DNA of 64,000 nucleotides from assembly GCA_048937405.1 (NCBI GenBank), contig JBHLNF010000003.1, positions 224,001-288,000 of the forward strand, written 5' to 3'. The DNA comes from Promethearchaeota archaeon (GTDB lineage Archaea > Asgardarchaeota > Lokiarchaeia > Sigyniarchaeales > SOKP01). A model generated the notes under the pieces. That model was not told the origin of the DNA. It worked only from the letters and a program-made list of their open reading frames with translations, and ran no database searches. This document shows positions 20,852-40,051 of this stretch, one piece after another. Every line of letters starts with the position of its first letter. Within the stretch, counting starts at the first letter, position 1. Position numbers and translations under genes: made by a program.

Positions 20852-21174
20852 ATAAGAAGATCTTTGGAAATCTTTTCCAAAAACTAATAACTTTTTACAT
20901 TTAAGAGAAGAAATTAGGATCTATATATTTAACCTTTTTATATCAGTTATTAACTTGCAATGAATTGAAAAATGATAGATTGTATTTTTTTAAGATGAAT
21001 AGTTGTTAGATGCCTTATCGCATCTCAATTTTTTACCAAAGAATTTTCTTTATTTTAATTATCCTCATTTTTTGACAAAAATATAAGTAATTGATTATCA
21101 TAACTATCTTTGTCAGCTTAATGACAATATAATTCATTTATAAGGTAATTTTTTTATTGTTTGAGGTAATTCTA

Positions 21175-23340
21175 ATGAGTTATGTAATATTAGATGAAGA
21201 AAAATATGATATAAAAGGAGGAAAACTAGATCTAAATTCTAAAAACATTGAAAATATAACTGAAATTAGAGGTTTAAAGACTTTTTCTGATTTACAGGTA
21301 TTATATCTTAATAAAAACAAAATAAAAGAGATTAATGGCTTAAAGCATTTAAATAAGTTGAAAGTGTTGGCCCTAAGTGATAATTTGATTACTGAAATAA
21401 AAGGTTTAGAATCAAATATTGATCTAGAATGGTTGAATTTAAGAAGTAATCAAATTACTGAGCTTAGAAACCTAGCTTCATTAAGTAACTTAAAAATTTT
21501 AAACTTACGTGATAATAGAATTACAGAGATTAAAGGATTAGAATCTTTAACTAATCTACAAGAATTAATTTTAACAGATAATCAAATTGCTGAAATTAGA
21601 GAACTACGCTATTTGTCAGATTTACAAGAGATAGATTTAAAAAACAATTTAATTACTGAAATTAAAGGGTTGGAAAATCTTACTAAATTACAGCAGATTG
21701 ATATGACGAATAATCAAATTTTTGAAATAAAAGGATTGGAAAATCTTACAAACTTGCAAGAATTAGTTCTTGCAGATAATAAAATTTCAGAAATTAAAGG
21801 GTTAGAAAATCTTACACGATTACGAGTGCTAAACCTCAGCAATAATCAAATTACAGATGTTAGAGGGTTAGAATCTTTAACTAATTTAAAATTTTTGAAT
21901 CTTAAAGGTAATCCAATTTCATATAGATTGCTTAGAGAATTAGATGGTTTTGATCAAAAAGGAAATGCTAAAAAACCTCAAAAATTTGTAGAATATTGCC
22001 AATATAGATTGGAAGAGGAGAGGAAAAAAGTAGAAAGGATTTGGAACAATACCATTCAATACATTAAAAAGTCGAGTTCAATATATAGTGAAATAACATT
22101 AGATAAAATTAGTTCAAAAACAGGAATTCAATCAAAAAATTTAGAAAGTCTTATTGAGAATATGATTTATAATAAAGAGATAGATGCCCAAATCAGAGGA
22201 AATTTGCTAATTTTTAAAAAACAAGTAATAAAACCAAAACTAGAGCCTAAATTAGAAGAAATGCCGAAGTTATCTCAATTTTTAGATGAATCTATAAAAA
22301 AAAATGTTAAAGTTTTAAGGGGAGGAGATTGGAAAATTGAAGCAAACCAGAGTGTTTTTAATTATAAAGTAAAAATAAAAAACTTATCTAAGTATATTAT
22401 TTCAGACATTCAAGTAATCTTTGGAGATATACCTCCAGGATTAGAATTAAGAATGGATAAATTAATCGAATTTTCAAAATTAAATCCTAATAGTGAGGTT
22501 GCCCCAACATATAAATTATATGCTACTGACAATTGTGTGGGAAGTGAAATAAAAGGTATCGTAAATTACAATGATCATTTTGGCCAAATGCACACAGTTC
22601 AAATAGAGCCATTTGAAATTTGCTATGTATGTAATTTACTTGTACCAAGGAGAGTATCTAGAGAGGAGTTTGAGAATACAATACAAAACATGGAAGGAAG
22701 GATTATGCATATAGATAGTAATATGGATCCATATAAAATTGAGGCTCTTATTAAAAGAAAAATGGAAGAATGTAATTTTGCTTTGCTTAAAGAAATCACA
22801 GAAGCCCAACAAAATGGTTTTAGGAAAATCGAAGGATTAGCTCAAGGATTATATGATAAGCAAGATGTAGCTATATCAATTGCGATGAAAAAACTCGAGG
22901 AAGGTTCAGACATAGAAATAAAGACTTTAAGTGATAAGGTGGAAAAAACAACTGATCTTTTAAAAGATATTAGTATTAAAATTGAAGACATAAAAAGTGA
23001 TACTCAAAAAGTTCAAGATATTATTTATTATTTGGATGAATCTAAAATCAGAGAAACTTTAAGTATTGTAATTGAAAATCCTAAAGATTTAAATAGAGTT
23101 ATCTATAAAGTTATTAAAAATCCAAATTGGAGTGATGAAGAAAAAGATAAATGGGCTAAAATTGTTATGGAAACTCTCAATTATTACAAAATGTTTAAAA
23201 CTCCGTTGTGGTTAAAATTCCTCAAAGGAATTACTAAAATCACATTAGGCGAACCAGCATCAAGAGCCATTACGGCTGGAGTGGAAGAATTAGTAGATTG
23301 GTTAAATTTAAAAATTGCTAAACGGCATATTAATAAATAA
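21175..23340 (+). CDS. LRR - PCI-like winged helix - adaptin-appendage-like protein
   Basis: 10-11 SDS22-type 22-aa repeats (LxxLxLxxNxIxEIKGLENL); SIYSEITLDKISSKTGI...LIENMIYNKEIDAQI; then a beta-rich and an alpha/beta domain. ATG 21175 follows GAGGT. Confidence 0.75.
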   Translation: MSYVILDEEKYDIKGGKLDLNSKNIENITEIRGLKTFSDLQVLYLNKNKIKEINGLKHLNKLKVLALSDNLITEIKGLESNIDLEWLNLRSNQITELRNLASLSNLKILNLRDNRITEIKGLESLTNLQELILTDNQIAEIRELRYLSDLQEIDLKNNLITEIKGLENLTKLQQIDMTNNQIFEIKGLENLTNLQELVLADNKISEIKGLENLTRLRVLNLSNNQITDVRGLESLTNLKFLNLKGNPISYRLLRELDGFDQKGNAKKPQKFVEYCQYRLEEERKKVERIWNNTIQYIKKSSSIYSEITLDKISSKTGIQSKNLESLIENMIYNKEIDAQIRGNLLIFKKQVIKPKLEPKLEEMPKLSQFLDESIKKNVKVLRGGDWKIEANQSVFNYKVKIKNLSKYIISDIQVIFGDIPPGLELRMDKLIEFSKLNPNSEVAPTYKLYATDNCVGSEIKGIVNYNDHFGQMHTVQIEPFEICYVCNLLVPRRVSREEFENTIQNMEGRIMHIDSNMDPYKIEALIKRKMEECNFALLKEITEAQQNGFRKIEGLAQGLYDKQDVAISIAMKKLEEGSDIEIKTLSDKVEKTTDLLKDISIKIEDIKSDTQKVQDIIYYLDESKIRETLSIVIENPKDLNRVIYKVIKNPNWSDEEKDKWAKIVMETLNYYKMFKTPLWLKFLKGITKITLGEPASRAITAGVEELVDWLNLKIAKRHINK

Positions 23341-23456
23341 TTTCCTCAACTTTTTTCTTATGCAATATTTAAGAATTAAGGAAAAAAAATAAAAAATTTC
23401 TTAGAGAATTTTTCCAGATGATTATTTAATTCTCTAATTTTAAATCTAAAAAATTA

Positions 23457-26400
23457 TTATCTTAAGATTTCTTCATAGAGATTCTGGATAAATCCTTCGA
23501 AATCATCTTTAGTAAATTTAACATTTAACATTTGCCATAGTAATCGAGGTATATGGTCTTCATCTTCATAAACAGGGATAATTTTCATCAGCCCTTTTTT
23601 AACCATTTGATATGCTGATTGCCATTCACCTTTTACTGCATCAGATTTTATGGAATTTTCTGAGCAAAATAATACGAAAACATTAGTTTTTTTAAGAGTC
23701 TCTTCCATAAATTCTACGATATTTTGCTTGCTATCTACTTCCCAGAATAAGACCTGATCTATTTCAGGATATAATTCTAGTCGTCTAACAATTCTAGAAA
23801 CTTGAAAGTAATCTGTGTCTAATGTTGAATAACTTATGAAAACATTATGTTTTGCCATAATTTCTTCTTTAGGTATAAGTACTGCCGCTTCTAATGCCAG
23901 AGCTTTAGAGCTTGAAAAGTATTCACCTTGGATTTCTTTATTTTTAATCATATCTTGAATTACATTCTCAATTATAGTTTCATCTATTATACCGCTCTTT
24001 TCACTTATATCTACGAGTTGTAAACGAGTAAATTTCGCCCCTAAGGTTAAGATTGTCTGCTTAATTCGATTAATTGTTTCTACTTGTGACTTTTTACAAA
24101 TTAATATTTTTTCTTCAGCTGCATTCACTAAGTCTATTAATTCAAAAGTCTGAGCTTCGTTTTGAATTTCTGTTAAATTTTCTATAGCTTTATCTAATTC
24201 ATTCGCCTTAATTAGAGAATCTACAAAAGACATTCTTTCTTGAAGTTCTTCTTCAGTTTTAGTTTTCTTTTCTTTAACTTTTTGTTCATCTATTTTAATC
24301 TGATAATATGCGATTGTAGTTTTAATTTGAGTTTTATTTGATTTTATTTTTTCTTTATATTCAATGAGATTATAATTTTTAACAATTTCTTTAGCTTCTT
24401 TAATTTGTTTTTGAGCTTGGTTTAAGGTCTCTATGGCATCACTATATTCTTGTTTCTGAGCAAACTTATTAGCCGTATCAATGAGGGATGTAGCTTTATT
24501 ATAATATTTATCAACTTTTGCCTCTTGTTTAATCATTTCTTTAGTTTTTTTTTCAATGGGTGCTTCTGCGGATGGTTTCACTTTAGGAGGCTTCCTTTTC
24601 TTTGAAACAACAAGAAGACTTACTAATATTAATCCTAAAATACCCACACTAACTACAATGATAATTAATACGAGGTAATTTTTACCGTCTCCAGGAGTAC
24701 CTTTACTCAAGGTAAGAGGATCTACGGCTAATTCGAGTTCAAAATATTTATCTGAATATCCGTTAGCAGAAATGGTCATATTTAACAAAATGGGCTCTTC
24801 TCCTGGTTCTACGGTTATCGGCTCAAAAGTTGTAAAATAGGTTCCCCCTCCAAGGTTTTGAACATTACTAGACACATCACTGCCATTCCACCACATCTGA
24901 AATGTTGCATCAGAAATTCCATGATTAGTCTTATTATAGACAGAATAAGTAAGATTGAATTCGTCTAAAGAGAAATTAGAATCTGTCACTTCTATAAATA
25001 GATTCCTTTCTGGAGCCCATTGACATGTATAGAAGTATGGCCAATTCAAAACATTCGGCAGAAATCCAGTTAAGGCAACGTGATGTGCAAAAATCACTTT
25101 TAAACAATATGCCCATACATGTGCAGAATCATTAATTAAAAGTTCTTGAATTCTGTCGTACATTACTTCTCTTGCAGGCCCGTCAGGGGTAATGAGCGCT
25201 TGTTCCATTAATAGCTGTACGTTATCATTGATATTCTCAGGGTCTCTACCAGCATAACCTGCCTCTAAATATCCATCATATTGAGCAATATTAGAAGCTT
25301 CTGATCTATTGGTAAACAATGGATTGATAAAGTCGCTAGCATCATTATAGTCAGGTCCCCAGCCAACAAGTAATAGCTCTAGATGATTTCTTGTATACCC
25401 GTTCCACTCGAACATTTTAGAGGTAAGAGTAATTAAATCACTCCCTGCATCCGTTACTCGAATTCCGATTTTCTTTAGATCTCTGATTAACATTGTATAT
25501 ACATCTTCTCGAAGTTCGGAGCCGATGTTATAAGAATAGTTAAAGGTTCTAAATGGAGAAGTCTCTGTTGCTGCAACCCATTCAGCGTCGTCATCTAGAT
25601 TAAAGCCTTCCCCATATCCCATTGATTGCATTATTATTCTTGCCTTTGTTAAGTTATATATGGGAACAGGGAATGTCCAGTTGGAGTACTTAAAACCCAT
25701 TGGAATAGGAGATTTCATTCTGATGGCATAACCTAATTTGGTAGTATTAATCAGATAATCATAATTAAATGCATAAGAAATTGCTTCTCTCCATGTCCTA
25801 TTTATCAGCATATTGTTCATTACTAAGTATTGAAAAGTTCCACCAGTATCTCCAGTATTTATCACTGCTATGTCAGGATCATCTGTAAACATATCCACAA
25901 ATTCTGCTACCGGGTCTTTTAAAAAGTGGATGTCCCCTGTTAATAATGCCGCATTTCTAGCATCCGGATCTTCAATTTCTGAAAAAACTAAATTATCAAT
26001 GCCCCCCCAATATCCTCTCCAATAATTATCATAAGCATGCAAGGTTACTTCGACATCCTCCTCATATGAATCATACACAAAAGGACCAGTTCCCACAACA
26101 TCCCCATCAAGTTCAACAATACCGCCTGTTTCATTATAGTATGTGTCGGTCAATATGGATGAGGCCGTATAGCATAACAAGTCCTCGAAAGGCGCATAGA
26201 CACCATTTAACTCAAACCTTACAGTATCACTATCTACTTTAACAACATCTTTTATAATTTGAGTACCATTAGGGTATACATATAATGATCTTACCAGGGG
26301 AATGCCGCCTGTATTAAGACCTGTGAAATTATACAACCAAGCTTGTCTATCAAAACTAAATACAACATCATCTGCGTCAAATGTGGAACCATCGTGGAAA

Positions 26401-26756
26401 GTGACACCAGTTCGGAGATTAACAGTATAATTTGTGTGACTTACGTCCCAGGTACCCATTTCTGCGGCGAGTAGGGGCATGATCGGCAGAGTGGGATCGC
26501 TTAAAGTATAAGTAAATAATGTTTCCACAACCTGAAAGAGTACATCCATTGATGACTCATCCCAGCAATTTTGGGGATCAATTGTATTGAGTAAGTTCGG
26601 TACACCATAAACAAAGGGAATGCTCGCAGAATCTGCACTAAATAATAAACTTGAATCAATAGCATTTTTGCGATAATCTCTAAAATTAATGAAACCATTT
26701 GATAAAGAAAGTAATATTGTTATAATTAAAAAAATTGTTTTATACTTTTTTTTCAT
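23457..26756 (-). CDS. single-pass membrane protein: family-5 (OppA/DppA) solute-binding domain - Ig-like - TM - helical repeats - PCI-like wH - TIR
   Basis: N-terminal hydrophobic leader (MKKKYKTIFLIITILLSLS, ATG 26756); LRTGVTFHDGSTFDADDVVFSF, GTGPF, GWGPDYND; TM YLVLIIIVVSVGILGLILVSLLVVS-KKRK; TIR VFISYS...LFCSENSIKSDAVKGEW...IIPV. Confidence 0.85.
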   Translation of the reverse strand: MKKKYKTIFLIITILLSLSNGFINFRDYRKNAIDSSLLFSADSASIPFVYGVPNLLNTIDPQNCWDESSMDVLFQVVETLFTYTLSDPTLPIMPLLAAEMGTWDVSHTNYTVNLRTGVTFHDGSTFDADDVVFSFDRQAWLYNFTGLNTGGIPLVRSLYVYPNGTQIIKDVVKVDSDTVRFELNGVYAPFEDLLCYTASSILTDTYYNETGGIVELDGDVVGTGPFVYDSYEEDVEVTLHAYDNYWRGYWGGIDNLVFSEIEDPDARNAALLTGDIHFLKDPVAEFVDMFTDDPDIAVINTGDTGGTFQYLVMNNMLINRTWREAISYAFNYDYLINTTKLGYAIRMKSPIPMGFKYSNWTFPVPIYNLTKARIIMQSMGYGEGFNLDDDAEWVAATETSPFRTFNYSYNIGSELREDVYTMLIRDLKKIGIRVTDAGSDLITLTSKMFEWNGYTRNHLELLLVGWGPDYNDASDFINPLFTNRSEASNIAQYDGYLEAGYAGRDPENINDNVQLLMEQALITPDGPAREVMYDRIQELLINDSAHVWAYCLKVIFAHHVALTGFLPNVLNWPYFYTCQWAPERNLFIEVTDSNFSLDEFNLTYSVYNKTNHGISDATFQMWWNGSDVSSNVQNLGGGTYFTTFEPITVEPGEEPILLNMTISANGYSDKYFELELAVDPLTLSKGTPGDGKNYLVLIIIVVSVGILGLILVSLLVVSKKRKPPKVKPSAEAPIEKKTKEMIKQEAKVDKYYNKATSLIDTANKFAQKQEYSDAIETLNQAQKQIKEAKEIVKNYNLIEYKEKIKSNKTQIKTTIAYYQIKIDEQKVKEKKTKTEEELQERMSFVDSLIKANELDKAIENLTEIQNEAQTFELIDLVNAAEEKILICKKSQVETINRIKQTILTLGAKFTRLQLVDISEKSGIIDETIIENVIQDMIKNKEIQGEYFSSSKALALEAAVLIPKEEIMAKHNVFISYSTLDTDYFQVSRIVRRLELYPEIDQVLFWEVDSKQNIVEFMEETLKKTNVFVLFCSENSIKSDAVKGEWQSAYQMVKKGLMKIIPVYEDEDHIPRLLWQMLNVKFTKDDFEGFIQNLYEEILR

Positions 26757-26856
26757 AAATTTGACCCTATTTTTTGTTATGATTATTTTAGATAGAAATG
26801 TATAAAAACATTTTTGTCTAAATTTCAAAACTAGAAAGTTGACCTGAAAAAACCAA

Positions 26857-26888
26857 CGTTAAGAGATTGAATCGTTAAGAGATTAAAT
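26857..26888. repeat. 16-bp tandem repeat upstream of the SBP-TIR gene
   Basis: CGTTAAGAGATTGAAT CGTTAAGAGATTAAAT (1 mismatch). Confidence 0.7.
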
Positions 26889-27338
26889 AAAGAGAGACAT
26901 AACTATTAATTTGTAGTTATTACTGTAGGAGTGCAAATAGTAATAACCAATATCTGTCATATTTTTAAAATATATGGAAATATTTTCGAATCATTTACTG
27001 GACATCATTATTTATACTTTGCTTGTATTTTATTTTAGATATTGCAATATCTTTAATGTTTTAATATAGTTCACTTAAACAACTTACTGTTTTTTAAATT
27101 ACTAAATCTACAATCTTAATAACATATTAAGAGAAGATTTTTAAAGAAATCTAAAGCAATTTAAAATGATAATTCAATATTGGTGGTGAAAAATGATGAT
27201 TCATTGTCATGAAATGAAAGATGGAGATATATATAAAAGTAAATAATCAAATATAGAATGTTATGAATGGTGAAACTTTTATTATCTTATTTGAATTATA
27301 AATAATTAATTTAATTTTCAAAACGAAAAAATAAGAAA

Positions 27339-28112
27339 ATGTCGCTTCCATCAAAAAAAGCTATTCAAGTTGATGAGAATACAGTTAATTATGAGTATAA
27401 AATGTTAAACCATGTAATGTCGCTGGTTTACCACGAAGATAAATGCATTGAATGTGGATTTTGTCATCGAGTTTGCCCTGTTACTGTTTCAATTTATGAT
27501 GAGCCTTTAAAAAAAACTGCAATAGGAACACCAAAAGAGATGAGCATTGAATCAGACAAAAAAATCGTAGTTGATACAGAGAAATGTGTATGGTGTGGCT
27601 GTTGTACCTGGATCTGTCCAGGTTATACGTTAGAACTTTTCATAAATGGAGAGAAAAAGTTAAATGTTGTCGAGAATGGTTCACTTCCAGAATTCGAAGA
27701 AGAAGTAAGGACATTAGAAGATGGAAAAAAAGTTCGAAAAGTAGTAGAAGGTTCTATAACAATTACGTGTAATGAGAAAGATAAAAAAATAATAGAGGCA
27801 TTTTGCGACGAATGTACCGTCAGTGCGATGGAAAGAAAGGATACTGAAATTGAAATAGATGGAGATAAATGCATTCTATGTTTTAAATGCTCTGAAGCAG
27901 CTAAGGAATATGATAATATTACTGTTGAAATTCATCGTGATAGATTTAAAAATGTAAAAGGAGAGCCTTCTTCTGTGTGGAATGGTATTATGTTAAGAGT
28001 TCTTGGAAAAGAAGGTAAAGTTAAGGGTATTTTGAGTCGAAGCCAAAATAAACTTGCTGATGCAGTTATGAGATTAATGGGAAAAGAATTTGAAGAAGAA
28101 GAGGAAGCTTAA
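27339..28112 (+). CDS. polyferredoxin, FwdF-like
   Basis: CIECGFCHRVCP, CVWCGCCTWICP, CILCFKC; LELFINGE...GSLPEF resembles FwdF. Confidence 0.72.
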   Translation: MSLPSKKAIQVDENTVNYEYKMLNHVMSLVYHEDKCIECGFCHRVCPVTVSIYDEPLKKTAIGTPKEMSIESDKKIVVDTEKCVWCGCCTWICPGYTLELFINGEKKLNVVENGSLPEFEEEVRTLEDGKKVRKVVEGSITITCNEKDKKIIEAFCDECTVSAMERKDTEIEIDGDKCILCFKCSEAAKEYDNITVEIHRDRFKNVKGEPSSVWNGIMLRVLGKEGKVKGILSRSQNKLADAVMRLMGKEFEEEEEA

Positions 28113-28157
28113 ATTACCACTTTCTTTATCCTATTTTTGTTATTTTATCATAAGAAT

Positions 28158-29033
28158 TTATTGTTTGTATAATTTATTTTGTTGAAATGCCTGTAAAATA
28201 GCATTCATTCGTCTTTTAATATTTCTCTTATACATCAAGTCAGTATGGGTTAATATATAAAACACTTCATCCCTTATTGCTTGAAATACAATGTCACCTA
28301 CATTATTAGGTGAAAGTCCTGCCTTTAACATTTGACGAGTCATTTCTAATACTTGCTTAGATTCTGGATACTTCTCAATCAGTTTTTCTGCAACGGGTTT
28401 ATAATCTGGTCCGCGATACTTAGCAGGACGATTACGTTCACAATCCATAATTTTTGTATCAACAAATGATGGGCAAAGAACAGAAACCTTTATTTTTGAG
28501 TGTACTTGTTCAAGTTGCTGAGCTAAAGCTTCAGAGAGGACAATAATACCATGTTTTGTAGCACCATAAATCCCATTTCCCGCACCTGACATGAGTCCAG
28601 CAAGAGACGATGTATTTAATATATGACATTCATTTTGTTGTTTAAGCATGATTGGAACAAAATTACGTATACCATGGATTACACCCCAAAAGTTTACATT
28701 AATAATCCATTTCCAATCGGGTAGAGAATGTTCCCACATAAGGCCAGGCATCATCACACCAGCATTATTACATAATAAATGCACTTCTCCAAAAGTATCT
28801 ATTGATTTTTGGGCTAATGCCTTAACTTCTTTTGCTTTTGAAACATCTGTTAATACAGATATAACATTCGCTCTTACTGCTTTCAATTCCTTTTCGGCGT
28901 TAGATAATGCATCTATATCAATGTCGGCAAGGACGACGTTCATTCCTTCCTTAACAGCTCTATTTGCAATTCCACGTCCTATGCCATTTGCACCGCCCGT
29001 GATAACAGCAACTTTATCTTTAAAATCTTTCAT
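28158..29033 (-). CDS. short-chain dehydrogenase/reductase
   Basis: TGGANGIG, NNAG, YGATK. Confidence 0.92.
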   Translation of the reverse strand: MKDFKDKVAVITGGANGIGRGIANRAVKEGMNVVLADIDIDALSNAEKELKAVRANVISVLTDVSKAKEVKALAQKSIDTFGEVHLLCNNAGVMMPGLMWEHSLPDWKWIINVNFWGVIHGIRNFVPIMLKQQNECHILNTSSLAGLMSGAGNGIYGATKHGIIVLSEALAQQLEQVHSKIKVSVLCPSFVDTKIMDCERNRPAKYRGPDYKPVAEKLIEKYPESKQVLEMTRQMLKAGLSPNNVGDIVFQAIRDEVFYILTHTDLMYKRNIKRRMNAILQAFQQNKLYKQ

Positions 29034-29299
29034 AAGGATCTCGTTATAATTACTTAATTATAAAATCTAAAATTAGATATTAATAAAAAAAAATAAGATA
29101 AAATATAACATTTTTCAAAAAAAATGACAATTATATAAAAAAATCAAAATTTAACTTTTATCCGCAAATACAATATTTCTAATAATTATAAGAGGTAGAA
29201 AATTATAAAACTAAAAAATTAAAAAACTATCTACCACATATTTAGATTGTTATTTCTAATAAAACAAAACCTATTAAAAAATTGATAAAGTGATATAAA

Positions 29300-30307
29300 A
29301 TGGCAAAAAGAGTTGCAATCAACGGTTTTGGGCGTATAGGACGTCTATTTTTCCGAGCTGTTTATGATAATTTCTGGAATGATATTGATATTGTGTCAAT
29401 CAACGATCTTTTTGAACCAAAATATTTGGCGTATGCGTTAAAATATGACTCTGTCTTTGGAAGATTTAAAGGAAAAGTAGAATCTACTGAAAACTCATTG
29501 ATAATTGATGGTAAGAACATACCAATAACTGCTGAGAGAGATCCTGCAGCTTTACCACATGCTAGCAATAATATTGATGTTGCTGTTGAATCTACTGGTC
29601 GATTCGTAAATAGAGAAGGAGCTAGTAAGCATTTAACTGCTGGGGCAAAAAGAGTTTTAATTAGTGCTCCCGCAACAGATCCAGATATTACTGTTGTTCT
29701 TGGATGTAATGATGATAAATTAACAAGTGATCATAAAATTATTTCAAATGCATCTTGTACGACTAATTGTTTAGCTCCCGTAGTAAAAGTTTTACAAGAA
29801 TCTGTAAAAATTAAGTACGGTATAATGACTACAATCCATTCGTATACTAATGATCAATCCACAGCAGATATAGCACGTGCTGGAACTCCAGAGAAAATGA
29901 TCCGAGGAAGAGCTGCCGCAGCCAACATGATCCCAACTTCAACGGGAGCAGCTAAAGCTATTGGATTGGTTTTTCCTGAATTGCAAGGAAAATTAGATGG
30001 AATAGCAATGAGAGTTCCAACTCCAGATGGTAGTGTTGTAGATCTTAAAGCAGTAGTCGAGAATCCAATCTCAGCAGTAGAGATTAATGCAAAGATGAGA
30101 GAAGCAGCTAACGGATCCTTAAAGGGTATCTTAGATTATACCGATGATCCAATAGTAAGTAGTGATATTGTTGGAAATCCTCATAGTTCTGTCTTTAGTA
30201 GCCTCTGGACGAAAGTAATCAATGATGAAGTCTCCGTTTTATCATGGTACGATAATGAATGGGGATTTTCTAACCGTATGGCTGAATTAATCATTAAAAA
30301 GCTATAA
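29300..30307 (+). CDS. gap: type I glyceraldehyde-3-phosphate dehydrogenase
   Basis: VAINGFGRIGR, SNASCTTNCLAP, PTSTGAAKA, WYDNEWGFSNRM. Confidence 0.95.
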   Translation: MAKRVAINGFGRIGRLFFRAVYDNFWNDIDIVSINDLFEPKYLAYALKYDSVFGRFKGKVESTENSLIIDGKNIPITAERDPAALPHASNNIDVAVESTGRFVNREGASKHLTAGAKRVLISAPATDPDITVVLGCNDDKLTSDHKIISNASCTTNCLAPVVKVLQESVKIKYGIMTTIHSYTNDQSTADIARAGTPEKMIRGRAAAANMIPTSTGAAKAIGLVFPELQGKLDGIAMRVPTPDGSVVDLKAVVENPISAVEINAKMREAANGSLKGILDYTDDPIVSSDIVGNPHSSVFSSLWTKVINDEVSVLSWYDNEWGFSNRMAELIIKKL

Positions 30308-30459
30308 ATATCTAACTTTTTTAATTCCTTTTTTTATTTTTCGCATTAAAATTAGATTAGAAATAGTTCAAGAAAATCTAAACTTTCTTAATCCAACCTA
30401 AGTTCTTAAAAAATTTTACAATTAAATTTTAAAGTGTTTATATTAAAAAAAAATTGAAT

Positions 30460-31170: not shown

Positions 31171-31455
31171 GATTTTTAGATTTCTAAAAAAATTTTATTA
31201 GTTTTATATAAGATTTTCACTTTTAAAAAGACTTCATTTTATTAAAAAGGATTTTACTAAAATTTATTTAGAATAAATTGAACGTGAGAAAATAAATTTC
31301 TGATATAAAGCATGTATTTTGATAAGAAATTTCTAACTCAATTCATAAATTAGATTGTATTTATACTTTGTAATTGATATTAAAATTTAATTAAAGCAAT
31401 AATAAAATCAATAAAAGAATAATACTTTTAAAGCTCTCTAAATAATAATTAAAAC

Positions 31456-32388
31456 ATGGACCTTAGCGCAGGAAAACCTATTGAAATATCAGATAAGAGT
31501 CTTTTCGATAAATATTTTCAAAAATTTCCACCAGACATCTCTGAATTTACTTTCACTAACCTTTTCATGTGGAGGAATTATTATAATTTCTCATTTATCG
31601 TATTTAAGGAACATTTAATCCTATTTTCTTATGATTATTTGAAGAATAGAAGAAAGCCTATTAATACAGACTCAAAAGATTATCTTTATTTTTTTCCTCC
31701 GATTGGTCCAAATCCTGATAAAATCATTCTTGAATTATTTGAAAATCTTGGGAATGTAGAGGTTCATAGGGTTCCAGAAGACATCTGTGAAAAACTAAAG
31801 GAAAGTAAGAAATTTGCCAAATTAAATTTAAAATATCTTGAAGATCGCAATAATTGGGATTATGTACATGATAAAGAAGAAATATTGAATTTAGCGGGAA
31901 ATAAGTATCGGCAAAATAGAAGATGGTTACAGAAATTCAAAAATACCTACAATTACGATTTCCAATTATTATCAGTAGATCTCATTGAAAAATGTAAAGA
32001 ATTGCAGCTTGAATGGTGTATCATGCGAGCATGTACAGAAGATGAAAGTTTAGATGCTGAACAAGATGCTATCTATGAAGCCTTAAATAATTTTGATGCT
32101 CTTGGATTTAGTGGAGGTATACTATGTGTAAACGATAAATGTGCTGCTTATACTTTTGGTGAAAAGCTTAATGAAAAAGTTTTAGTGATTCATATTGAAA
32201 AGGCTCATATGGAATATGACGGGGCTTATCAAGCAATTAACAATTTTTTCTTAAAAAATAGTTATGAAGAGGCAGTTTATGTTAATAGAGAACAAGATTT
32301 AGGTATAGAGGGGTTAAGAAGAGCGAAAGAGTCCTATAAACCTATTCATATGATTAAAAAAAGTATTATTTACAGAAAAAAAATGTAA
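31456..32388 (+). CDS. DUF2156 / aminoacyl-phosphatidylglycerol synthase C-terminal-like protein
   Basis: SEFTFTNLFMW, IHIEKA, VNREQDLGIEGLRRAKESYKP. Confidence 0.85.
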   Translation: MDLSAGKPIEISDKSLFDKYFQKFPPDISEFTFTNLFMWRNYYNFSFIVFKEHLILFSYDYLKNRRKPINTDSKDYLYFFPPIGPNPDKIILELFENLGNVEVHRVPEDICEKLKESKKFAKLNLKYLEDRNNWDYVHDKEEILNLAGNKYRQNRRWLQKFKNTYNYDFQLLSVDLIEKCKELQLEWCIMRACTEDESLDAEQDAIYEALNNFDALGFSGGILCVNDKCAAYTFGEKLNEKVLVIHIEKAHMEYDGAYQAINNFFLKNSYEEAVYVNREQDLGIEGLRRAKESYKPIHMIKKSIIYRKKM

Positions 32389-32507
32389 AATAACCCTTAA
32401 TAAATTCTTTATAGGATATTTATTCAATGTTATATTATGTATTCTTATAAGTTTAAATCTTTTATATTCTGGAAGAGGAATCTTAAGAAGTTTAAAGGGA
32501 TTTAACT

Positions 32508-32918
32508 GTGGTCAAAGCTATTCGAGATTTATGGATTCAAAGATTAGATGGAATTGTTATATTTAGTAGAGTTTTTCATCAAAAAATAGAAGATCAACTA
32601 TTTGGAGCCCTCTTAAGCGCTCTTAATTCATTTACTCAGGAGATAGCTGATGGAGAATTGACCAATTTTGAGATAAAAAATATTCGCTTTACAATTATCA
32701 AAAGAGAAAACCTTTTCTTTATAGCAAATTCCTCAAAAAAACATAAAGAAAAGAAAATTTTAGCAGAATTGGAGACTATTGCTAAGAGATTCTTAGAACA
32801 ATATCCTGAAACAAAAAATCATAATTGGAATGGATGTATTGATGAATATAAAAACTTCGAAAGTAAAATCACGGATACTTTAGAAGATCCAGTTAAAAAA
32901 TTCTGGGATGATTTTTAA
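32508..32918 (+). CDS. stand-alone longin/roadblock-like domain protein
   Basis: LWIQRLDGIVIFSR...DQLFGALLSALNSFTQEI...F..F pattern typical of Asgard longin-like proteins. Confidence 0.65.
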   Translation: MVKAIRDLWIQRLDGIVIFSRVFHQKIEDQLFGALLSALNSFTQEIADGELTNFEIKNIRFTIIKRENLFFIANSSKKHKEKKILAELETIAKRFLEQYPETKNHNWNGCIDEYKNFESKITDTLEDPVKKFWDDF

Positions 32919-33065
32919 GAATTAATCTAAATCACAGAAATACTTATTTGATTGGTTTACTTCTTTCAAAAATAAGAAAGGGAAAATATTGGATTTATAA
33001 ATGTTTACATTAATATATGTGAAATTACTTATAATACTAAAAAATCGAATAATATGTGAAAATTT

Positions 33066-34724
33066 ATGTCAGATGAGGGTTCACAAGAAGAAAAACCAGT
33101 GGGGAGATTAACAGGAAAGACTACAACTCATACAGTTACAGCGGTACTTGAGGGTCCTTCGGTTGAAAGGAATAATTATTTAGTGCTTTATGGGGAAAAA
33201 GATGAAGAAGGGAAAAGGCAATATTATGTATTTTATATTACCGAAATGTGGACAGATGAAAAGGGGCGTATGGCAAAATTGGGAGTACTTGGAGAAAGAC
33301 CAACAAGGCCTTTTGAGATTGGAGCAGATATTTTTATGGCAAAAGAAGAGCAAATTTCAAAAATCTTAGGAATCTTTAATCCCCCAGAAGAATCCCTCTC
33401 CTTAGGAAAGCTAATTGGTTATCCATATGAAGTATATCTATTGATTAAAAATTTTGGCAGAATCTTCATTACTGGAAAATCTGGTTCGGGTAAATCTTAT
33501 ACAATGGGAGTATTATGTGAGGAATTTCTTAAAAAGGGAATTCCTTTAGTTATATTAGATAGACATGGAGAATATGGCTCATTAAAAGTTGCTGGTGAGG
33601 ATTTACCAGAGGGAGAGAGTGAATTTGTTGATAGAATAATAGAATTTTCTGATTTAAAGAAGAATAAGGGTGGAGATGTTGATATTGAATATTTATTTTC
33701 ATTAAAACCTTCGGATATTGTTGCACCTAATCTATGTTGTGTAGTAAATTTAAATGGTATGGCTTTAGAAGTTCAAGAAGCTATAGCAGGAAAATTGTTA
33801 AAGAAGTTATATGATGCAAGTACAACAAGAGGAATTCCTCCTTTCTACTTATTTCTAGATGAAGCCCACTTATTTGCTGGAAAGAAACAAACAGAAACTT
33901 GCGAAGTTGTAAAACTATTTGCTCAAGAAGGTAGAAAATTTGGAGCAAATATAGTTATAGGTACACAACGTCCTCAACTATTAGATACAACAATCAGAGC
34001 TCAAGCAGGAACCTGGGTTGTTCATAATCTTTCTGATATAAGGGATATTGGGATTACAATTTCAAGCGCAGAAGATTTAAGTAATGAAAATAAATCAGAT
34101 ATTTCAGGATTAGACAAAGGACAGGCTATAATCTGTGGAGAAGCTGTTAAAGGAATTCCTTTATTTGTAAAAATTAGAAAGAGAAGAACAAAGCATGGTG
34201 GGGTAAGTTTTAATCCTTTAGATTTTCTCTCAGAAAATACAGTTGAGGAACTTCAAAAACGTAAGGAACGTCTTTTGGGTGGAAAATCTGCCGATGAACT
34301 AGAAACTGGAAAGTCTATGTTTGAAGAGATGTTGGAACCAAAGAAGGCAACCGATTATTTAGATGAGATTGCGGCTCTTAAAGTAAGAATTCAAGAATTA
34401 GAGGATGAGGTCTCACGTCTTAAAGAAAAAGTAGCAAATGTTAAAGAAGGAAAAGATATTCCGCTTATAGCTACAGATGAAACAATAGAAGAATTGCAAA
34501 CTGAAATAAACGTATGGAAAGAGAAATACAATTTCTTGAAAGAAATGGCGGAAAAAGGCGGAGATGACATGATTCCATTAGATGAAGATAGTGAACAATT
34601 ATTAGATTTGAATAATCGAATTATCGAACTTGAAGCACAAGTTAAAAAATATAAATCAAGATCAGATGATGCTTTGATACTAGCAGAAAAATCTATAGCT
34701 GAACTTAAGAAGCGGAAGAAATAA
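33066..34724 (+). CDS. HerA/FtsK-like ATPase (DUF87) with a C-terminal coiled coil
   Basis: ITGKSGSGKS, ILDRHGEY, LFLDEAH, QEGRKFG, TQRPQ; heptad-rich last 130 aa or so. Confidence 0.85.
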   Translation: MSDEGSQEEKPVGRLTGKTTTHTVTAVLEGPSVERNNYLVLYGEKDEEGKRQYYVFYITEMWTDEKGRMAKLGVLGERPTRPFEIGADIFMAKEEQISKILGIFNPPEESLSLGKLIGYPYEVYLLIKNFGRIFITGKSGSGKSYTMGVLCEEFLKKGIPLVILDRHGEYGSLKVAGEDLPEGESEFVDRIIEFSDLKKNKGGDVDIEYLFSLKPSDIVAPNLCCVVNLNGMALEVQEAIAGKLLKKLYDASTTRGIPPFYLFLDEAHLFAGKKQTETCEVVKLFAQEGRKFGANIVIGTQRPQLLDTTIRAQAGTWVVHNLSDIRDIGITISSAEDLSNENKSDISGLDKGQAIICGEAVKGIPLFVKIRKRRTKHGGVSFNPLDFLSENTVEELQKRKERLLGGKSADELETGKSMFEEMLEPKKATDYLDEIAALKVRIQELEDEVSRLKEKVANVKEGKDIPLIATDETIEELQTEINVWKEKYNFLKEMAEKGGDDMIPLDEDSEQLLDLNNRIIELEAQVKKYKSRSDDALILAEKSIAELKKRKK

Positions 34725-34922
34725 TAAAAAATCTAATTAATTTAAGATGTTGAATATGTTCTATCTTTTTTCAATTTTTTAAAAATCTTCGATTTGTTTG
34801 ATTAGGATTATTTGAGAATTAACAGTTGACATTCCGCAATAATCATAATAAAACTTTATAATCACCATAAAAATATTAAATAATTCTAAACTATTCTAAG
34901 GAATTCTGCAAAAATTAAGTTA

Positions 34923-36371
34923 TTATTTGATGAATATATCTTTTTCCTCAATATCCATTATTTCTTTCTCAGTGAATTTCTTTTCTAATTTAATTCGACT
35001 TAGAAAGAATAAGCTTATTAAGTAGAAAAGTCCCATTGACGCCATCGTGAGAGTAATTATAATTGGATTTTTTTCGTTGTTTCCTGTAAGAACTATTCCT
35101 ATTGATAGTGAGGCGAGTGCTTGACCGATTGCCATAATAAAAGCAGCCAGACCAAAATACCCTCCAGAAATTCTTGAAACAGATTCCTCAAAATCAGATT
35201 CTACTTCCCTATCAGCAGCTTCATATACTAAAACGCTTGCTAAAGGGGGATTAAATAATCCCGCGCCATACATAGAACCTAAAATTGTACCCATAGAACA
35301 AATGAATAATACAGTAACAAATTCAAAAGATAATCCTTTAACTAAAAATATTAATTCCATAAAAGAAGCAATCACTAAGGCTAATATACATATTTTAAAA
35401 GTTTTAAGGATTGAATTCTTTTTAAGTAATTTCCGCCAGATATAAAATCCAATAAATTTACTTGAAAATGAAACAATAACATAAATGTAGAATTTAGGTC
35501 CTGTAAACAGGAGAACATAAGTTAGAAAAGGAATCACTAAAGCACCTAAAATTCTACCTGATATCCCATTGAAGAACCTTACACCTAAATATTTTTTGAA
35601 TTTTTTATCACTAAAGGGTGCTCGCATTTGTGTTAAATAATCCCGAACACTAATTCGACTACTTGAAATTTCTAGATTTGAAGAGTTATGAAAACTCTCG
35701 TCGACGGAAAAAAAAGTTATAATAATTGTTATTAATCCAAAAATTGTAAAAATTATTCCTACCCATGGGATAATAGCAAGGATTATCTTTCCTGATGGTT
35801 CCCACCATTTAACATTTTTCGGTTCTGGTAATATGCTCTGCACCATTAATGGAAGCATTAGTGCTAATCCTGATGCAATTATTTGTAAAAAAGTTGTTGC
35901 AGCAGCAATTTTCTGTCTATTCTTATGAGTTTGCGATTGTTCAGTCAACATAGAAAGATGGACAGTTATAATTGATGCTCCTGTTATAGCCTTAATAATT
36001 AATATAATCCATAAAAATAAAGCAGTTGGCAAATATAAGGAATTATTTTGGGGGCATTTCCAAGGAAACCAAACAATAATGCTAGATAATGCCCATAAAG
36101 GTAACCCATACAAAAGATATGGTCGACGTTTTCCATATTTTCCAGGTTTTTTATTATCGGCAAGTATTCCAAAAACTATTGAAGAAATTGCGTTAACAAT
36201 AAGCTGGAAGAAGACTCCTGCCGAAGTTAGGAATGAATCTAAATTAACGGTATAAACATAAAATTGAAATATAAAAGTACCTACCAACATGTTTGCCATA
36301 ATAATACCGAAGTTACCTATGATATATCCTATCAGCGGTTTTCCATGTAATTCTCTTGGGACCTCTACCAT
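34923..36371 (-). CDS. MFS transporter, GPH/MelB-like
   Basis: About 12 hydrophobic segments; GILADNKKPGKYGKRRPYLL. Confidence 0.85.
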   Translation of the reverse strand: MVEVPRELHGKPLIGYIIGNFGIIMANMLVGTFIFQFYVYTVNLDSFLTSAGVFFQLIVNAISSIVFGILADNKKPGKYGKRRPYLLYGLPLWALSSIIVWFPWKCPQNNSLYLPTALFLWIILIIKAITGASIITVHLSMLTEQSQTHKNRQKIAAATTFLQIIASGLALMLPLMVQSILPEPKNVKWWEPSGKIILAIIPWVGIIFTIFGLITIIITFFSVDESFHNSSNLEISSSRISVRDYLTQMRAPFSDKKFKKYLGVRFFNGISGRILGALVIPFLTYVLLFTGPKFYIYVIVSFSSKFIGFYIWRKLLKKNSILKTFKICILALVIASFMELIFLVKGLSFEFVTVLFICSMGTILGSMYGAGLFNPPLASVLVYEAADREVESDFEESVSRISGGYFGLAAFIMAIGQALASLSIGIVLTGNNEKNPIIITLTMASMGLFYLISLFFLSRIKLEKKFTEKEIMDIEEKDIFIK

Positions 36372-36664
36372 ATCAATATAAAGTGTATATTAATAATTAA
36401 CTTTTCGATTTCGCAAAGAATAAATTAAATTAGTAGAAATTTTTAAAGAAATTTCTAATCTTCTTTTTTATCTCTTGTCATTTCTAAACTTTTTTTCATT
36501 ACAATTCTATAACTGATAAATCGGGTTATAGAATTTAAGTGTATAATTTTAATTTAAGTATTTTTACTAATATAATTTGAATTTCCTTTTCTTTGTTTTA
36601 TTTAACTTAATGTATTATTTGCAATTAAAAATTTTAAATTAGATTAAGTCTTATTTTTGTAGTA

Positions 36665-37705
36665 ATGAGTCAAAACCAGATATTGTGTGTTACTTACTTT
36701 GATCAAGTAATTGGCCCTAGTTTTCTTTATTCCAGTGAACCGTTAATTGAATCCATTGATATTCCCGATATTAATAGGATCCTTGAATTTAATGAAGAAG
36801 AAGGGACATTCATTTTTGCATATAGAAAATATCAAACGGTAAATCATATTTTTTATATAGATTCTGATTTAGCACGAGGAGGAAGAGAATTAATGATGAT
36901 TTCATATATGATCAAGACTGCTATCTTTAAAGATGAAATTGTAGATGTTTTCAAGTATTTGGACTCGAAAGGACCAATTTTGGAGGATTTTGCCTTGGAG
37001 GTTAAAAATATAAAAGATCTAACCTCCTTCTTACATGAGAAGAAGAGTGGGTTGACTGGTGATTTTTTGCTAGAACTCGCTAATAATAATTTAAAGAGCA
37101 TATTTTTGGAAATTTTTAATAAATACTTTGCAAAATTAGCTCCTAAATACCGATTAGAAACCCCAATTAAAGATAGACGTCTGATCAAGAAAATATTTAT
37201 TGTTGGGGCTCCAAGAGTAGGAAAGACTACATTTTTGAAAAATATTGAATTAATTCAATTTTTGAATATAAAAAGAAATGATTTACCAAGTAGAATTTTT
37301 GAAGTAGTTGTTGAAAACATTGATATCTTAGATTATGATCCTAATTCAAGTGAGTTTGAATGTAAGGAATTTGAAAATTTAGAAAACTGTGTAAATTTCT
37401 CACAAGGTTTTATTCTCCTTTTTGATTTATCTGATAAGCATTCAGCATTAAGAACAAAAGAAATTTTTCAAATTGTCGATAATACACGATTGGAAATGCA
37501 AAGACAATTAGCACCAATTTTAATAATTGGAAATAAATTCCACAGTGAGAAAGAACTTGATCCAAAATTTATTAATGAAACCTTTGAAATTGAAAAATTA
37601 AAAGAACTTGGAGTTAAAATTAATTATATTCCCATAAATATTTTGAAAGAAGATGAAAAAATGATGAATGCTTTACGATGGCTAATAATTAATATATTAG
37701 AGTAG
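36665..37705 (+). CDS. uDENN/longin-like domain fused to a degenerate Ras-like GTPase
   Basis: N-terminal CVTYFDQVIGP; P-loop GAPRVGKTT; GFILLFDLSD; ILIIGNKFH. Confidence 0.68.
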   Translation: MSQNQILCVTYFDQVIGPSFLYSSEPLIESIDIPDINRILEFNEEEGTFIFAYRKYQTVNHIFYIDSDLARGGRELMMISYMIKTAIFKDEIVDVFKYLDSKGPILEDFALEVKNIKDLTSFLHEKKSGLTGDFLLELANNNLKSIFLEIFNKYFAKLAPKYRLETPIKDRRLIKKIFIVGAPRVGKTTFLKNIELIQFLNIKRNDLPSRIFEVVVENIDILDYDPNSSEFECKEFENLENCVNFSQGFILLFDLSDKHSALRTKEIFQIVDNTRLEMQRQLAPILIIGNKFHSEKELDPKFINETFEIEKLKELGVKINYIPINILKEDEKMMNALRWLIINILE

Positions 37706-37841
37706 TAATTATAGAAAAAAAATTCAATTTTAGACTTTTTATCAATAATATGGACATCCAACAAATCTTTTAAATTATTATAAATATATTAAATAAAAGC
37801 AATAAAGCATTCTGACTCAAATAATTTCATAAAAGATAAAG

Positions 37842-38192
37842 ATGGGAATCAAAGGTATTGGATGGGGAATAATTTTCTTAATTACTGCAGTGATCTATTC
37901 TGCAATTCCTACTTATTTAATAATAAGATTTTGGGTTTGGTTAAACGGTTTTCCGGTATATACGTTATCATTATTCATGCTATTTTTATGGATTGTAGCT
38001 ATAATTGTTGTTTTAATATACATTGTAGCGATGATAAGAGCTTTTATTCAAAGAAATAATGAAGAAGGTTTAGGTATACCAAAAGGAGTTAAAGGATTTG
38101 GATTAGTTTCAAGTATAATCGTTCTCTCATTTATGTTGATTTGGTATTTTATTTTTAACCAGATTGCTTTTTTCTCTATGATACCTACTTAA
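37842..38192 (+). CDS. small 3-TM membrane protein
   Basis: 116-aa ORF with three hydrophobic segments. Confidence 0.7.
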   Translation: MGIKGIGWGIIFLITAVIYSAIPTYLIIRFWVWLNGFPVYTLSLFMLFLWIVAIIVVLIYIVAMIRAFIQRNNEEGLGIPKGVKGFGLVSSIIVLSFMLIWYFIFNQIAFFSMIPT

Positions 38193-38218
38193 AAAATTTT
38201 AAAAGTAGAAAATATTAC

Positions 38219-38350
38219 TTAAGGATCTCTTCGATATTTACCAGATTTTTGAGTTGCTTCAATCAATGATTTTACATCCTGGATTTTTCAGCAGGGTGCA
38301 TATTAGCTACGAAGAATATCAAATCATCATCAGTAGATTTAGGCTTAATA
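38219..38350 (-). pseudogene. possible 3' remnant of a UroD/MtaA-family gene
   Basis: Two frames read LIFFVANMHPAEK / QDVKSLIEATQKSGKY, resembling that family's C-terminus; frameshifted, no start codon. Confidence 0.35.
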
Positions 38351-38453
38351 ATTACTTTAATGTAAAATTTATAAATATTCAAAGGATATATGTCTATATC
38401 CATTAAAAAATATGAATATATTAAATCCAATATAATATTCTTTGTGATTTAAA

Positions 38454-39542
38454 ATGTCTGTCGAATATGGTGGGCAGTTTTTTAAAGTTATTAATAAAAA
38501 AAGTTCGCTAATTCTTGATTTAAGTAATCAAGGAATAAGAGATATATCTGAAATTAAGGGGCTTGATAATCTTGTAAATTTAAGATATCTTAATCTTAAT
38601 AAAAATCAAATTACTGAAATTAAGGGTCTCGATAATCTAAGGATATTAGAGACTTTATCACTAGAAAACAATAATATTTCCGAGATTAAAGGTCTTGATA
38701 ATTTAAATTTATTACAGCATCTGTTACTCAATGGAAATAATATTACTGAGATTAAAGGTCTTGGTAATCTTTCAAGTTTAAAGAGAATTGAACTACAAGA
38801 TAATCCAGTTAGGGCTTCTGCAAAAGAGATGTTTGGAAGATATTGGTCAAATCCACAACCTATGGTAAAATATTGTCAACAAAAGGTTCCAGAGATTAGA
38901 GAACATGAAAAAGTTAAAAAATCAAAAGAAGAAACAATTCAATACCTCAAAAATTTACCATCTATATATGAGGAAATAACATTTGAAGAAATTAGCTTAA
39001 AAACAGGCTATAGTAAAAGAGAACTTAAGGCTTTAACTGAAGATTTAATTTTAAAAGGAGATATACCAGGGTCAATTAGAGAAAATATTATAATATTTAA
39101 GAAAGAATTATTAACGGAAGCTCTGCAAGAAGAAACTATTCCCATAGAAAAACAAAGTAAAAAAATTTTTGTAAGTTATGCTACAAAAGACGCGGAATTA
39201 TTCAAAATAAAGGAAATCGCAAAAGGTCTTAGAATTTATGATGAGATAGAGGAGGTTCTTTATTATGAAGCAGAATCATATGATAATTTTGTTAAATATA
39301 TGAACGATAATCTCGGTAGATGTGATGTGGTACTCCTATTTTGCTCTCCAAATTCATTAGAATCTGGACCAGTTGAAAAAGAGTGGACTGCTGCGGATGC
39401 AATGAACAAACCTATTATTCCAGTATTTATAAGAGCGGATCATATTCCTCCACTTTTAAAATCAAGGTTAGGTGTTGAATTTGATACTTTTAATATGGAA
39501 AAAAATATTGAAGAGATTTATAGGATAATAATGAAAAGATGA
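38454..39542 (+). CDS. LRR - PCI-like winged helix - TIR protein
   Basis: 4-5 SDS22-type LRRs; SIYEEITFEEISLKTGY...DLILKGDIPGSI; TIR IFVSYA...LFCSPNSLESGPVEKEW...IIPVF. Confidence 0.85.
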   Translation: MSVEYGGQFFKVINKKSSLILDLSNQGIRDISEIKGLDNLVNLRYLNLNKNQITEIKGLDNLRILETLSLENNNISEIKGLDNLNLLQHLLLNGNNITEIKGLGNLSSLKRIELQDNPVRASAKEMFGRYWSNPQPMVKYCQQKVPEIREHEKVKKSKEETIQYLKNLPSIYEEITFEEISLKTGYSKRELKALTEDLILKGDIPGSIRENIIIFKKELLTEALQEETIPIEKQSKKIFVSYATKDAELFKIKEIAKGLRIYDEIEEVLYYEAESYDNFVKYMNDNLGRCDVVLLFCSPNSLESGPVEKEWTAADAMNKPIIPVFIRADHIPPLLKSRLGVEFDTFNMEKNIEEIYRIIMKR

Positions 39543-39689
39543 GTAATTTCAGTAAAATTACAAGTAAGATTTTCAAAATCTTTTTAGAGATAGTTATTCT
39601 TAATTTCTAATGTTATTATTCTTATAATAATACTATTAGAATAAAGAGAAAAAAAAACCTAAAGGATTAAAAAAGATAGTAGAATAACT

Positions 39690-39899: not shown

Positions 39900-40051
39900 T
39901 TTAAATCACAACCTAATTTGCTTATATAATTAATATTGAATTTGCAAATTATTTACTTTATCAATATAGAATTTTATTTAAAAGTTCCCAAAATTGTCTA
40001 TTTTTATACTAGATATTTCTTTAAGTTTTGATTGTATTCTTATTTTTTTGG

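Follow-up and report, generated by a model that had tools for sequence, protein, structure and literature searches.

The window analyzed here is a stretch of 64,000 nucleotides on contig C13 (GenBank JBHLNF010000003.1, positions 224,001 to 288,000) of a Promethearchaeota archaeon, whose genome is 4.47 Mb long with a GC content of ~29%. It includes three genes, designated A, B and C, whose protein products share a winged helix (wH) of the PCI type, placed between different N-terminal and C-terminal domains. Genes A (positions 21175..23340, forward strand) and B (23457..26756, reverse strand) are convergent neighbors with 116 nt between their stop codons. Gene C (38454..39542, forward strand) is found further downstream.

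Gene A encodes a protein of 721 aa, counted from the ATG, which is identical to the database protein P0124. The open reading frame (ORF), its translation and the Pfam matches to LRR families and PCI indicate a cytosolic protein composed of leucine-rich repeats (LRRs), a cap, the PCI-type wH, an adaptin-type ear and a helical C-terminus. Around ten 22-residue LRRs of the SDS22/internalin type occupy 21244..21930 (Pfam LRR_4, E 2.9e-48), corresponding to a 66-nt tandem periodicity with 9 copies. The cap motif PQKFVEYCQ (21976..22002) precedes the wH (22030..22227). The adaptin/COPI-type appendage, composed of a beta-sandwich and a platform, is at 22306..22983, and a helical C-terminal domain conserved among orthologues, with a low-confidence model, is at 22999..23337. 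For the last ~100 residues, no significant match was found in Pfam, the PDB profiles or the Atlas, and neither Vps28-C nor the steadiness box was detected.

The 1099-aa product of gene B has, according to Pfam, NCBIfam and its sequence, a signal peptide, an ectodomain, a transmembrane (TM) helix, a coiled coil, the wH and a TIR domain, all on the reverse strand. The ectodomain belongs to solute-binding-protein family 5 (SBP5; 25302..26483, Pfam SBP_bac_5, E 3.8e-63). Its NCBIfam matches are DppA/SapA/GsiB-like, every one under the equivalog cut-off. The single TM helix was recognized from sequence and hydropathy at 24606..24677 and is followed by KKRK on the inner side. The stretch at 24084..24551 appears to be a charged, helical, coiled-coil-like stalk. 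The wH is at 23880..24074 and the TIR domain at 23460..23843. N-glycosylation sequons are unevenly distributed: the ectodomain (667 aa) has 16, the tail (382 aa) has 2. Because of the signal peptide, the single membrane span followed by KKRK, and this bias of sequons to the outside, the protein is predicted to be a glycosylated type-I surface receptor.

Gene C encodes a cytosolic protein of 362 aa with four to five LRRs (38511..38810, Pfam LRR_4, E 3.5e-14), the cap motif PQPMVKYCQ (38853..38879), the wH (38919..39119) and a TIR domain (39165..39539). Its orthologue P0005, 75% identical, sits on a syntenic contig. At E<=1, a Pfam scan of the three proteins detected no NTPase family, NACHT/NB-ARC-type ones included.

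The initial annotation of this DNA had reported one module in all three genes, and its segments at 22051–22221, ~23889–24080 (reverse strand) and 38934–39104 translate exactly. They are confirmed from sequence comparison to be homologous far beyond chance. The wHs of A and C show 42% identity (BLASTP, E 2e-22), and this alignment includes the cap PQ..V.YCQ, common to both LRR proteins as had been proposed. The entire LRR-cap-wH block of C is colinear with that of A at 44% identity (E 1e-44). The similarity between the wHs of A and B alone is weaker (36% identity, E 7e-4). Nevertheless, when all 10,719 ORFs in the genome were searched with a profile of 151 wH copies, from which B and all copies of the membrane type had been excluded, the B segment was recovered (E 1.2e-10). 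The wH-TIR regions of C and B are 34% identical (E 7e-31), and the motifs quoted earlier for a common TIR subfamily are found in both proteins.

The structure-based and profile-based analyses indicated that the shared module corresponds to the wH half of PCI domains. The Pfam PCI model (PF01399) gave 31.9 bits for the full protein A against a cut-off of 22, and 36.5 bits (E 5.7e-9) for the isolated segment. PCI was the top family for all eight isolated copies of the tight family in the genome, with a best E of 5.7e-9. The copies of C (16.5 bits) and B (15.7 bits) are under the cut-off, yet they are homologous to the copy of A, and the family profile matches C at 77.8 bits. Among solved structures, the best sequence matches of a profile of wH copies were eIF3c (1.9e-5) and CSN3 (0.009), followed by DDRGK1 and CSN4. 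The AlphaFold2 (AF2) model of the wH shows the order H1-b1-H2-H3-b2-b3 with a predicted local distance difference test (pLDDT) score of 85. Around 46 of its 50 top Foldseek rows were chains of the COP9 signalosome (CSN), eIF3, the proteasome lid or DDRGK1/UFL1, with TM-scores of 0.6–0.8, root-mean-square deviations of 1–3 A and up to 27% identity (COP9 signalosome chains). A wide structural search with VIA-align retrieved DDRGK1/UFL1, CSN3, CSN4 and a proteasome chain at Z 9.3–10.3. Two observations count against this assignment. The Foldseek E-values reach only ~1e-3 because the domain is small (71 residues), and generic or DNA-binding winged helices reach Z 7–9 in the wide search.

The PCI-like character proposed earlier is thus supported for the wH by Pfam, profiles and Foldseek, but not for a full PCI domain. 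The Pfam match of A covers only model positions 22–73 of 84. The helical-repeat (TPR/HEAT-like) subdomain that would lie ahead of the wH is not present in A, B or C. The wH is preceded by LRRs and the cap in A and C and by the charged stalk in B, and the AF2 model has a single long helix before it. Since the helical-repeat half is missing, the module is not a whole PCI domain. It is free-standing and 60–65 aa in length. In the model of A, it is connected to the ear by a disordered linker, and in C a short charged stretch lies between it and the TIR domain.

It was considered whether the wH binds nucleic acid, in which case these proteins would be transcription factors, either tethered to the membrane or linked to TIR, or would sense foreign DNA or RNA. 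The fold itself is compatible with this, as are the NiaR, PurR, SelB, Z-alpha and MarR-type structures at Z 7–9 and the weak matches of some copies to Pfam HTH_Mga, TFIIE_beta and RuvB_C. On the other hand, PCI is the best family in all eight copies, and almost all of the 50 highest Foldseek ranks belong to PCI-class chains, with riboflavin-kinase and MarR-type chains only at ranks 41 and 50. In 252 family copies, positions 43, 44 and 50 of helix 3 are acidic in 57–75%, and only one basic position is conserved. Membrane spans are also predicted in 58 of the 150 best wH representatives. Nucleic-acid binding is therefore very unlikely, and the segments are related PCI-type winged helices whose acidic helix 3 does not suit an ordinary DNA-binding helix-turn-helix (HTH) domain. 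Because a linker separates the wH from the ear or TIR domain and helix 3 is acidic, the most likely role of the wH is docking to other proteins or self-association, and it is probably no DNA reader.

The region of A called an appendage in the initial annotation is a genuine adaptin/COPI ear. Its AF2 model is confident over both the beta-sandwich and the alpha/beta platform subdomains (pLDDT mostly >90), and Foldseek against PDB found the COPI gamma/beta and AP2 alpha/beta2 appendages at E 6.5e-10 to 3e-7 over ~240–250 columns. The ear does not terminate the HEAT solenoid of a large adaptor subunit; LRRs and the wH form the N-terminal part. The best Foldseek match of the ear is a COPI leaf bound to GOLPH3.

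The TIR domains of B (54.9 bits) and C (54.4 bits) exceed the cut-off of 28 for Pfam TIR_2 (PF13676), and the ThsB_TIR model gave 13–16 bits, under its cut-off of 21.2. Both belong to a large Asgard TIR subfamily. The Glu of the V.KEW motif is encoded at 23625–23627 in B and at 39381–39383 in C and is invariant in 41 family TIR sequences (alignment A4). A search of PDB sequences with the TIR domain of C alone found nothing useful, and a profile was needed. The subfamily profile matches the solved TIR-TPR protein 9m0n (E 2.9e-6), with the V.KEW Glu aligned with the Glu of VKKEI; it matches bacterial SEFIR domains as well. We take the invariant Glu to be at the catalytic position. It presumably corresponds to the catalytic Glu of SARM1 (motif WVHKEI).

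The ear raises another explanation, in which these proteins serve membrane trafficking, such as ESCRT- or adaptin-like sorting, instead of immunity. A would be a cargo adaptor, and the TIR domains, like those of animal receptors, would serve as scaffolds without enzymatic activity. Asgard proteins in which an adaptin appendage, HTH/PCI and TPR are joined to ESCRT-related domains have been described, and cargo recognition has been proposed for them (PMC10936438). Longin-like and Arf-like genes are present within the window, and one A orthologue has a GPP34/GOLPH3-like gene upstream. Nevertheless, no match to Vps28-C or the steadiness box was found in A, no ESCRT gene is beside A, B or C, the conserved Glu of the TIR domain is invariant, and the distribution is patchy and insertion-like, unlike that of core trafficking genes. 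A trafficking role is therefore quite unlikely.

Genes A and B occupy an accessory insert of ~6.5 kb (20852..27338) between a conserved gene for a 221-aa protein and a ferredoxin gene, which are adjacent in congeners. The two flanking genes are 193 nt apart in G049 and 124 nt apart in G150, and the slot has a TFB-like gene in G132. Gene C occupies a second accessory insert of ~1.9 kb (38193..40051). Its flanking genes, encoding a 116-aa protein and an FAD protein, are also adjacent in congeners, with gaps of 11 nt in G049, 20 nt in G150 and 48 nt in G132, and a URO-D gene is in this slot in G008 and L030. The adjacency of flanking genes in congeners indicates that both loci are accessory insertions and that A and B move as a unit. 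Both slots look like hotspots for accessory genes. There are no direct repeats flanking the A-B insert. A contig joint from 20764 to 27274, skipping A and B, was found in three sediment runs of two studies; its shorter side fits 27–28 letters only, so it is a weak hint.

The adjacency and convergence of A and B, pointed out in the initial annotation, are conserved in relatives. Orthologues of A, 67–73% identical, are tail to tail with a wH-TIR receptor on L023, L025, L027, L035 and L036. Including the window, this arrangement is seen in six of the seven contexts examined, with 14–116 nt between the genes. Three or more different gene sets flank the pair across contexts, and the ectodomain of the partner receptor varies among SBP5, SBP5 with NosD, and NosD. 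The wH-ear paralogues on L029, L032 and L033 do not adjoin TIR genes, and on L034 there is only a Ras-TIR gene two genes away. Since these paralogues are not next to TIR genes, the pairing is specific to the group of A orthologues. On L023 (3731–7792) and L027 (1480–5805), the A orthologue has a second, divergent receptor gene on its upstream side, encoding Peripla_BP_6, a NosD beta-helix and TIR but giving no match to the wH profile, so that the LRR-wH-ear gene is located between two TIR receptors.

The wH profile found 364 clusters at E<=1e-3 among 1.84 billion representatives. In our own domain scan of the best 150 of these clusters, 27 were wH-TIR, 16 were wH-ear and the rest were solo or other; where membrane spans are predicted, 3–4 TM helices followed by the wH are often seen. 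Relatives of the C TIR have LRR, Ras/Roc GTPase, ubiquitin, Band-7, WD40 or TPR at the N-terminus, and in ~31 of 120 such relatives among the matches listed the wH is ahead of the TIR domain. The ear module of A is present in 89 proteins with N-terminal LRR, TPR, WD40, GTPase or NosD domains, around half of them with the wH. The receptor tails, that of B included, are 78–86% identical across different ectodomains. In the wH tree, the C copy is nearest, orthologues aside, to copies of LRR-ear proteins, and the B copy is among those of TM-TIR proteins. The tree is poorly resolved (70 columns, 213 rows); the number of output-label changes, at least 37 compared with ~90 for shuffled labels, is indicative only. 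The census of architectures and the label changes in the tree show that the sensor/output matrix described in the initial annotation is real. A and C share LRR-cap-wH, B and C share wH-TIR, and the matrix is held across the Asgard relatives sampled.

In the genome of the window, 9 genes carry the wH, and there are 11 close TIR genes. Of 150 other genomes drawn from across the phylum, 24 gave matches to the wH profile, mostly one or two each. Of 40 family genomes, 14 have the TIR tail, with up to 10 matches in one, and two have the A module. Every named relative of the window proteins is from a metagenome-assembled genome of Promethearchaeota/Lokiarchaeota, and as far as the sources name organisms, the family is so far restricted to Asgard archaea. 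Outside the window, two adjacent paralogues of the same genome as A, B and C, at C28:239689-244250 (L019 and L021), consist of a secreted beta-propeller-like ectodomain, a TM helix, a helical stalk and the wH. In these receptors the wH is the only cytoplasmic domain, with no TIR and no other output domain, which implies a partner that reads the wH.

Taken as a whole, the explanation that we consider best, with a probability of about 0.5, is an accessory Asgard family with the order sensor, PCI-type wH and output, in which A and B constitute a functional cassette, the wH mediates clustering, and gene C is an independent paralogue. A ligand on the sensor would cluster the protein through the stalk and the wH, and the clustering would assemble TIR domains for NAD+ cleavage or for the synthesis of a nucleotide signal. 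A may be an optional adaptor or regulator of B, possibly acting through wH-wH contact, and its ear could be a protein-interaction hub linking B to other machinery. Because the cassette stays together in different genomic contexts, A and B most likely work together. Hetero-docking of proteins through the wH is plausible. A complex prediction of the wH and ear of A (residues 285–640 of the ORF) with the wH-TIR tail of B gave 0.02 (mark, 0.32) and was used neither way. A role in conflict or surveillance, directed at viruses, neighboring cells or partner-derived molecules, would fit both the patchy, insertion-like distribution and the exchange of ectodomains.

Several observations weigh against this explanation. 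The wH is dispensable for some members, as five of the 11 close TIR genes in the genome are without it, and in one of them there are only ~56 residues from the TM helix to the TIR domain. An obligatory hetero-partner is also disfavored, since most related genomes with wH matches at E<=1e-5 have just one or two of them. The pairing of A and B has exceptions. On L028 the A orthologue adjoins UvrB with no receptor, and in G049 a receptor at a PHO4-flanked locus like that of L035 is present without the LRR-ear gene. Gene C is a separate single-gene insert 15 kb from the A-B pair. The surroundings of A-B and C are housekeeping genes, neither an operon nor a defense island, and PADLOC found no known defense family in A, B or C. 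The SBP5 ectodomain suggests the sensing of small solutes over that of viruses.

Some of these observations can be explained if the three proteins arose independently by domain shuffling and never co-assemble. The wH would then act only in cis, for homo-dimerization or spacing, and adjacency would reflect co-inheritance or co-transfer. The isolated insertion of C, the one to two wH matches in most related genomes, the receptor without A in G049, the A orthologue without a receptor on L028, and the TPR- or WD40-type wH-ear paralogues away from TIR genes all fit with it. It does not easily account for a pair that is tail to tail in six of seven contexts despite differing flanks and ectodomains, for the insertion of A and B here as one unit, or for the receptors whose only cytoplasmic domain is the wH, which imply a reading partner. 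Independent shuffling is thus possible but doubtful.

The initial annotation had gone further than the cassette of A and B. It read the PCI module as a docking code that would co-assemble a membrane receptor and cytosolic LRR sensors and bring TIR domains together in a signalosome-like sensing or immune system. This interpretation is partly supported, the docking of the three proteins onto each other being its hypothetical part. A bolder reading is a receptor-adaptor system peculiar to Asgard archaea in which free-standing wHs would be homotypic docking tags, joining surface receptors, cytosolic LRR sensors, TIR enzymes and ear adaptors in one signalosome, a role that can be likened to that of animal death or TIR domains. 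We consider such a system unlikely.

The comparison with known systems delimits what is shared. The Asgard module has the same wH topology and sequence signature as the COP9 signalosome, eIF3, the proteasome lid and DDRGK1/UFL1. In contrast to the PCI subunits of CSN, eIF3 and the lid, it is without the helical-repeat subdomain, the C-terminal helix bundle or a known MPN partner, and it is inserted between LRRs or a TM-stalk and TIR or an ear. Prokaryotic TIR defense proteins, such as Thoeris ThsB, SPARTA TIR-APAZ, TIR-STING, TIR-NLR and the TIR-TPR protein 9m0n, likewise have TIR_2-type domains with a conserved Glu, variable fused sensors and patchy accessory genes. Unlike them, A, B and C have no PADLOC match and no ThsA, Argonaute, STING or STAND NTPase partner; the linker is a PCI-type wH, and many members are type-I surface receptors. 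In the neighboring genes, scanned over a few kb, no ThsA-type domain (SIR2 or SLOG) was found.

The Toll-like/IL-1 receptors of animals and the TIR-NLRs of plants follow the same logic, as B has an ectodomain, one TM helix and TIR, and C has LRRs and TIR. The ectodomain of B is, however, a solute-binding protein instead of LRR or Ig, and neither B nor C combines an LRR ectodomain, a TM helix and TIR in one chain. Gene C encodes neither a TM helix nor NB-ARC. Homology is seen at the level of individual domains.

The closest published proteins are the Asgard appendage proteins of Makarova et al. (2024, PMC10936438), a study that describes multidomain proteins with an adaptin appendage, HTH/PCI and TPR in an ESCRT context, and PCI-like winged helices in archaeal kinases. 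Like them, gene A has a PCI-type wH together with Ig-like and TBP-like appendage halves in a Lokiarchaeial genome. Those proteins are tied to ESCRT via Vps28-C or the steadiness box, whereas the neighbor of A is a TIR receptor and no Vps28-C was detected in A. The text of PMC10936438 does not contain "TIR", "LRR" or "leucine-rich", and none of the literature found by searching, Asgard defense surveys included, describes wH-TIR, LRR-wH-TIR or the A-B pair. The claim that such a system is undescribed therefore does not stand for Asgard proteins with HTH/PCI and an appendage, but it stands for the link to TIR and LRR, for which no paper was found. New here are the conserved tail-to-tail A-B pair, its insertion as a unit, and C as a separate insert.

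In eukaryotes, domains of the TIR, LRR, PCI and adaptin-ear types have central roles in immunity, the assembly of protein complexes and trafficking. All four types are recombined here in one accessory family of the archaea closest to eukaryotes, including layouts in the style of Toll-like receptors. If the wH is a docking element, the family would provide a simple prokaryotic model for PCI assemblies and for receptor-adaptor-TIR signaling, and the repertoire of TIR-based systems would extend beyond the published defense catalogues. If the signalosome proposal were true, PCI-type assembly and Toll-like-receptor-like logic would both have been present already in archaeal relatives of eukaryotes. 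The conserved mobile A-B pair is a concrete two-protein hypothesis, testable in a heterologous host.

Two other genes with PCI-like wHs were observed in the same genome. In the product of L001 (C16:22722-25211), a zinc ribbon is combined with a tandem array of four to five PCI-like wHs, followed by a beta-sandwich to which the ear profile gives a weak match (E 7e-9); the protein resembles Zn-ribbon/wH architectures reported for Asgard archaea in PMC10936438. The product of L007 (C18:248671-251634) looks adaptin-like in its layout, with HEAT-like repeats and a long coiled coil together with a PCI-like wH (23 bits) and a beta-rich C-terminal domain. Upstream of the receptor-less A orthologue on L028, the GPP34/GOLPH3-family gene is at 4438–5112; its link to the GOLPH3-bound COPI leaf matched by the ear of A is probably a coincidence.

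Between A-B and C, the window contains genes for ferredoxin, SDR, GAPDH, a longin-like protein, a HerA-like ATPase, an MFS transporter and an Arf-like GTPase. The small longin-like protein (32508–32918) matches Fuz_longin_1 at 25.5 bits, just below the cut-off. The HerA-like ATPase (33066–34724) matches the HerA models of PADLOC, and the Arf-like GTPase (36665–37705) has an N-terminal extension of 170 aa. Two genes downstream of C, a metallo-beta-lactamase-fold gene is encoded on the reverse strand (41414–42439), and its orthologue on L030 bears a Pfam match to Anti-Pycsar_Apyc1. On L031, a Lactamase_B gene (7436–8317) also directly follows a different LRR-wH-TIR gene; this may be a coincidence. 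The 221-aa protein flanking the A-B insert (20186–20851) has an orthologue (65–71% identical) and a paralogue (35–38%) in every congener, and it shows a very weak profilin-like Pfam hint (E 0.045).

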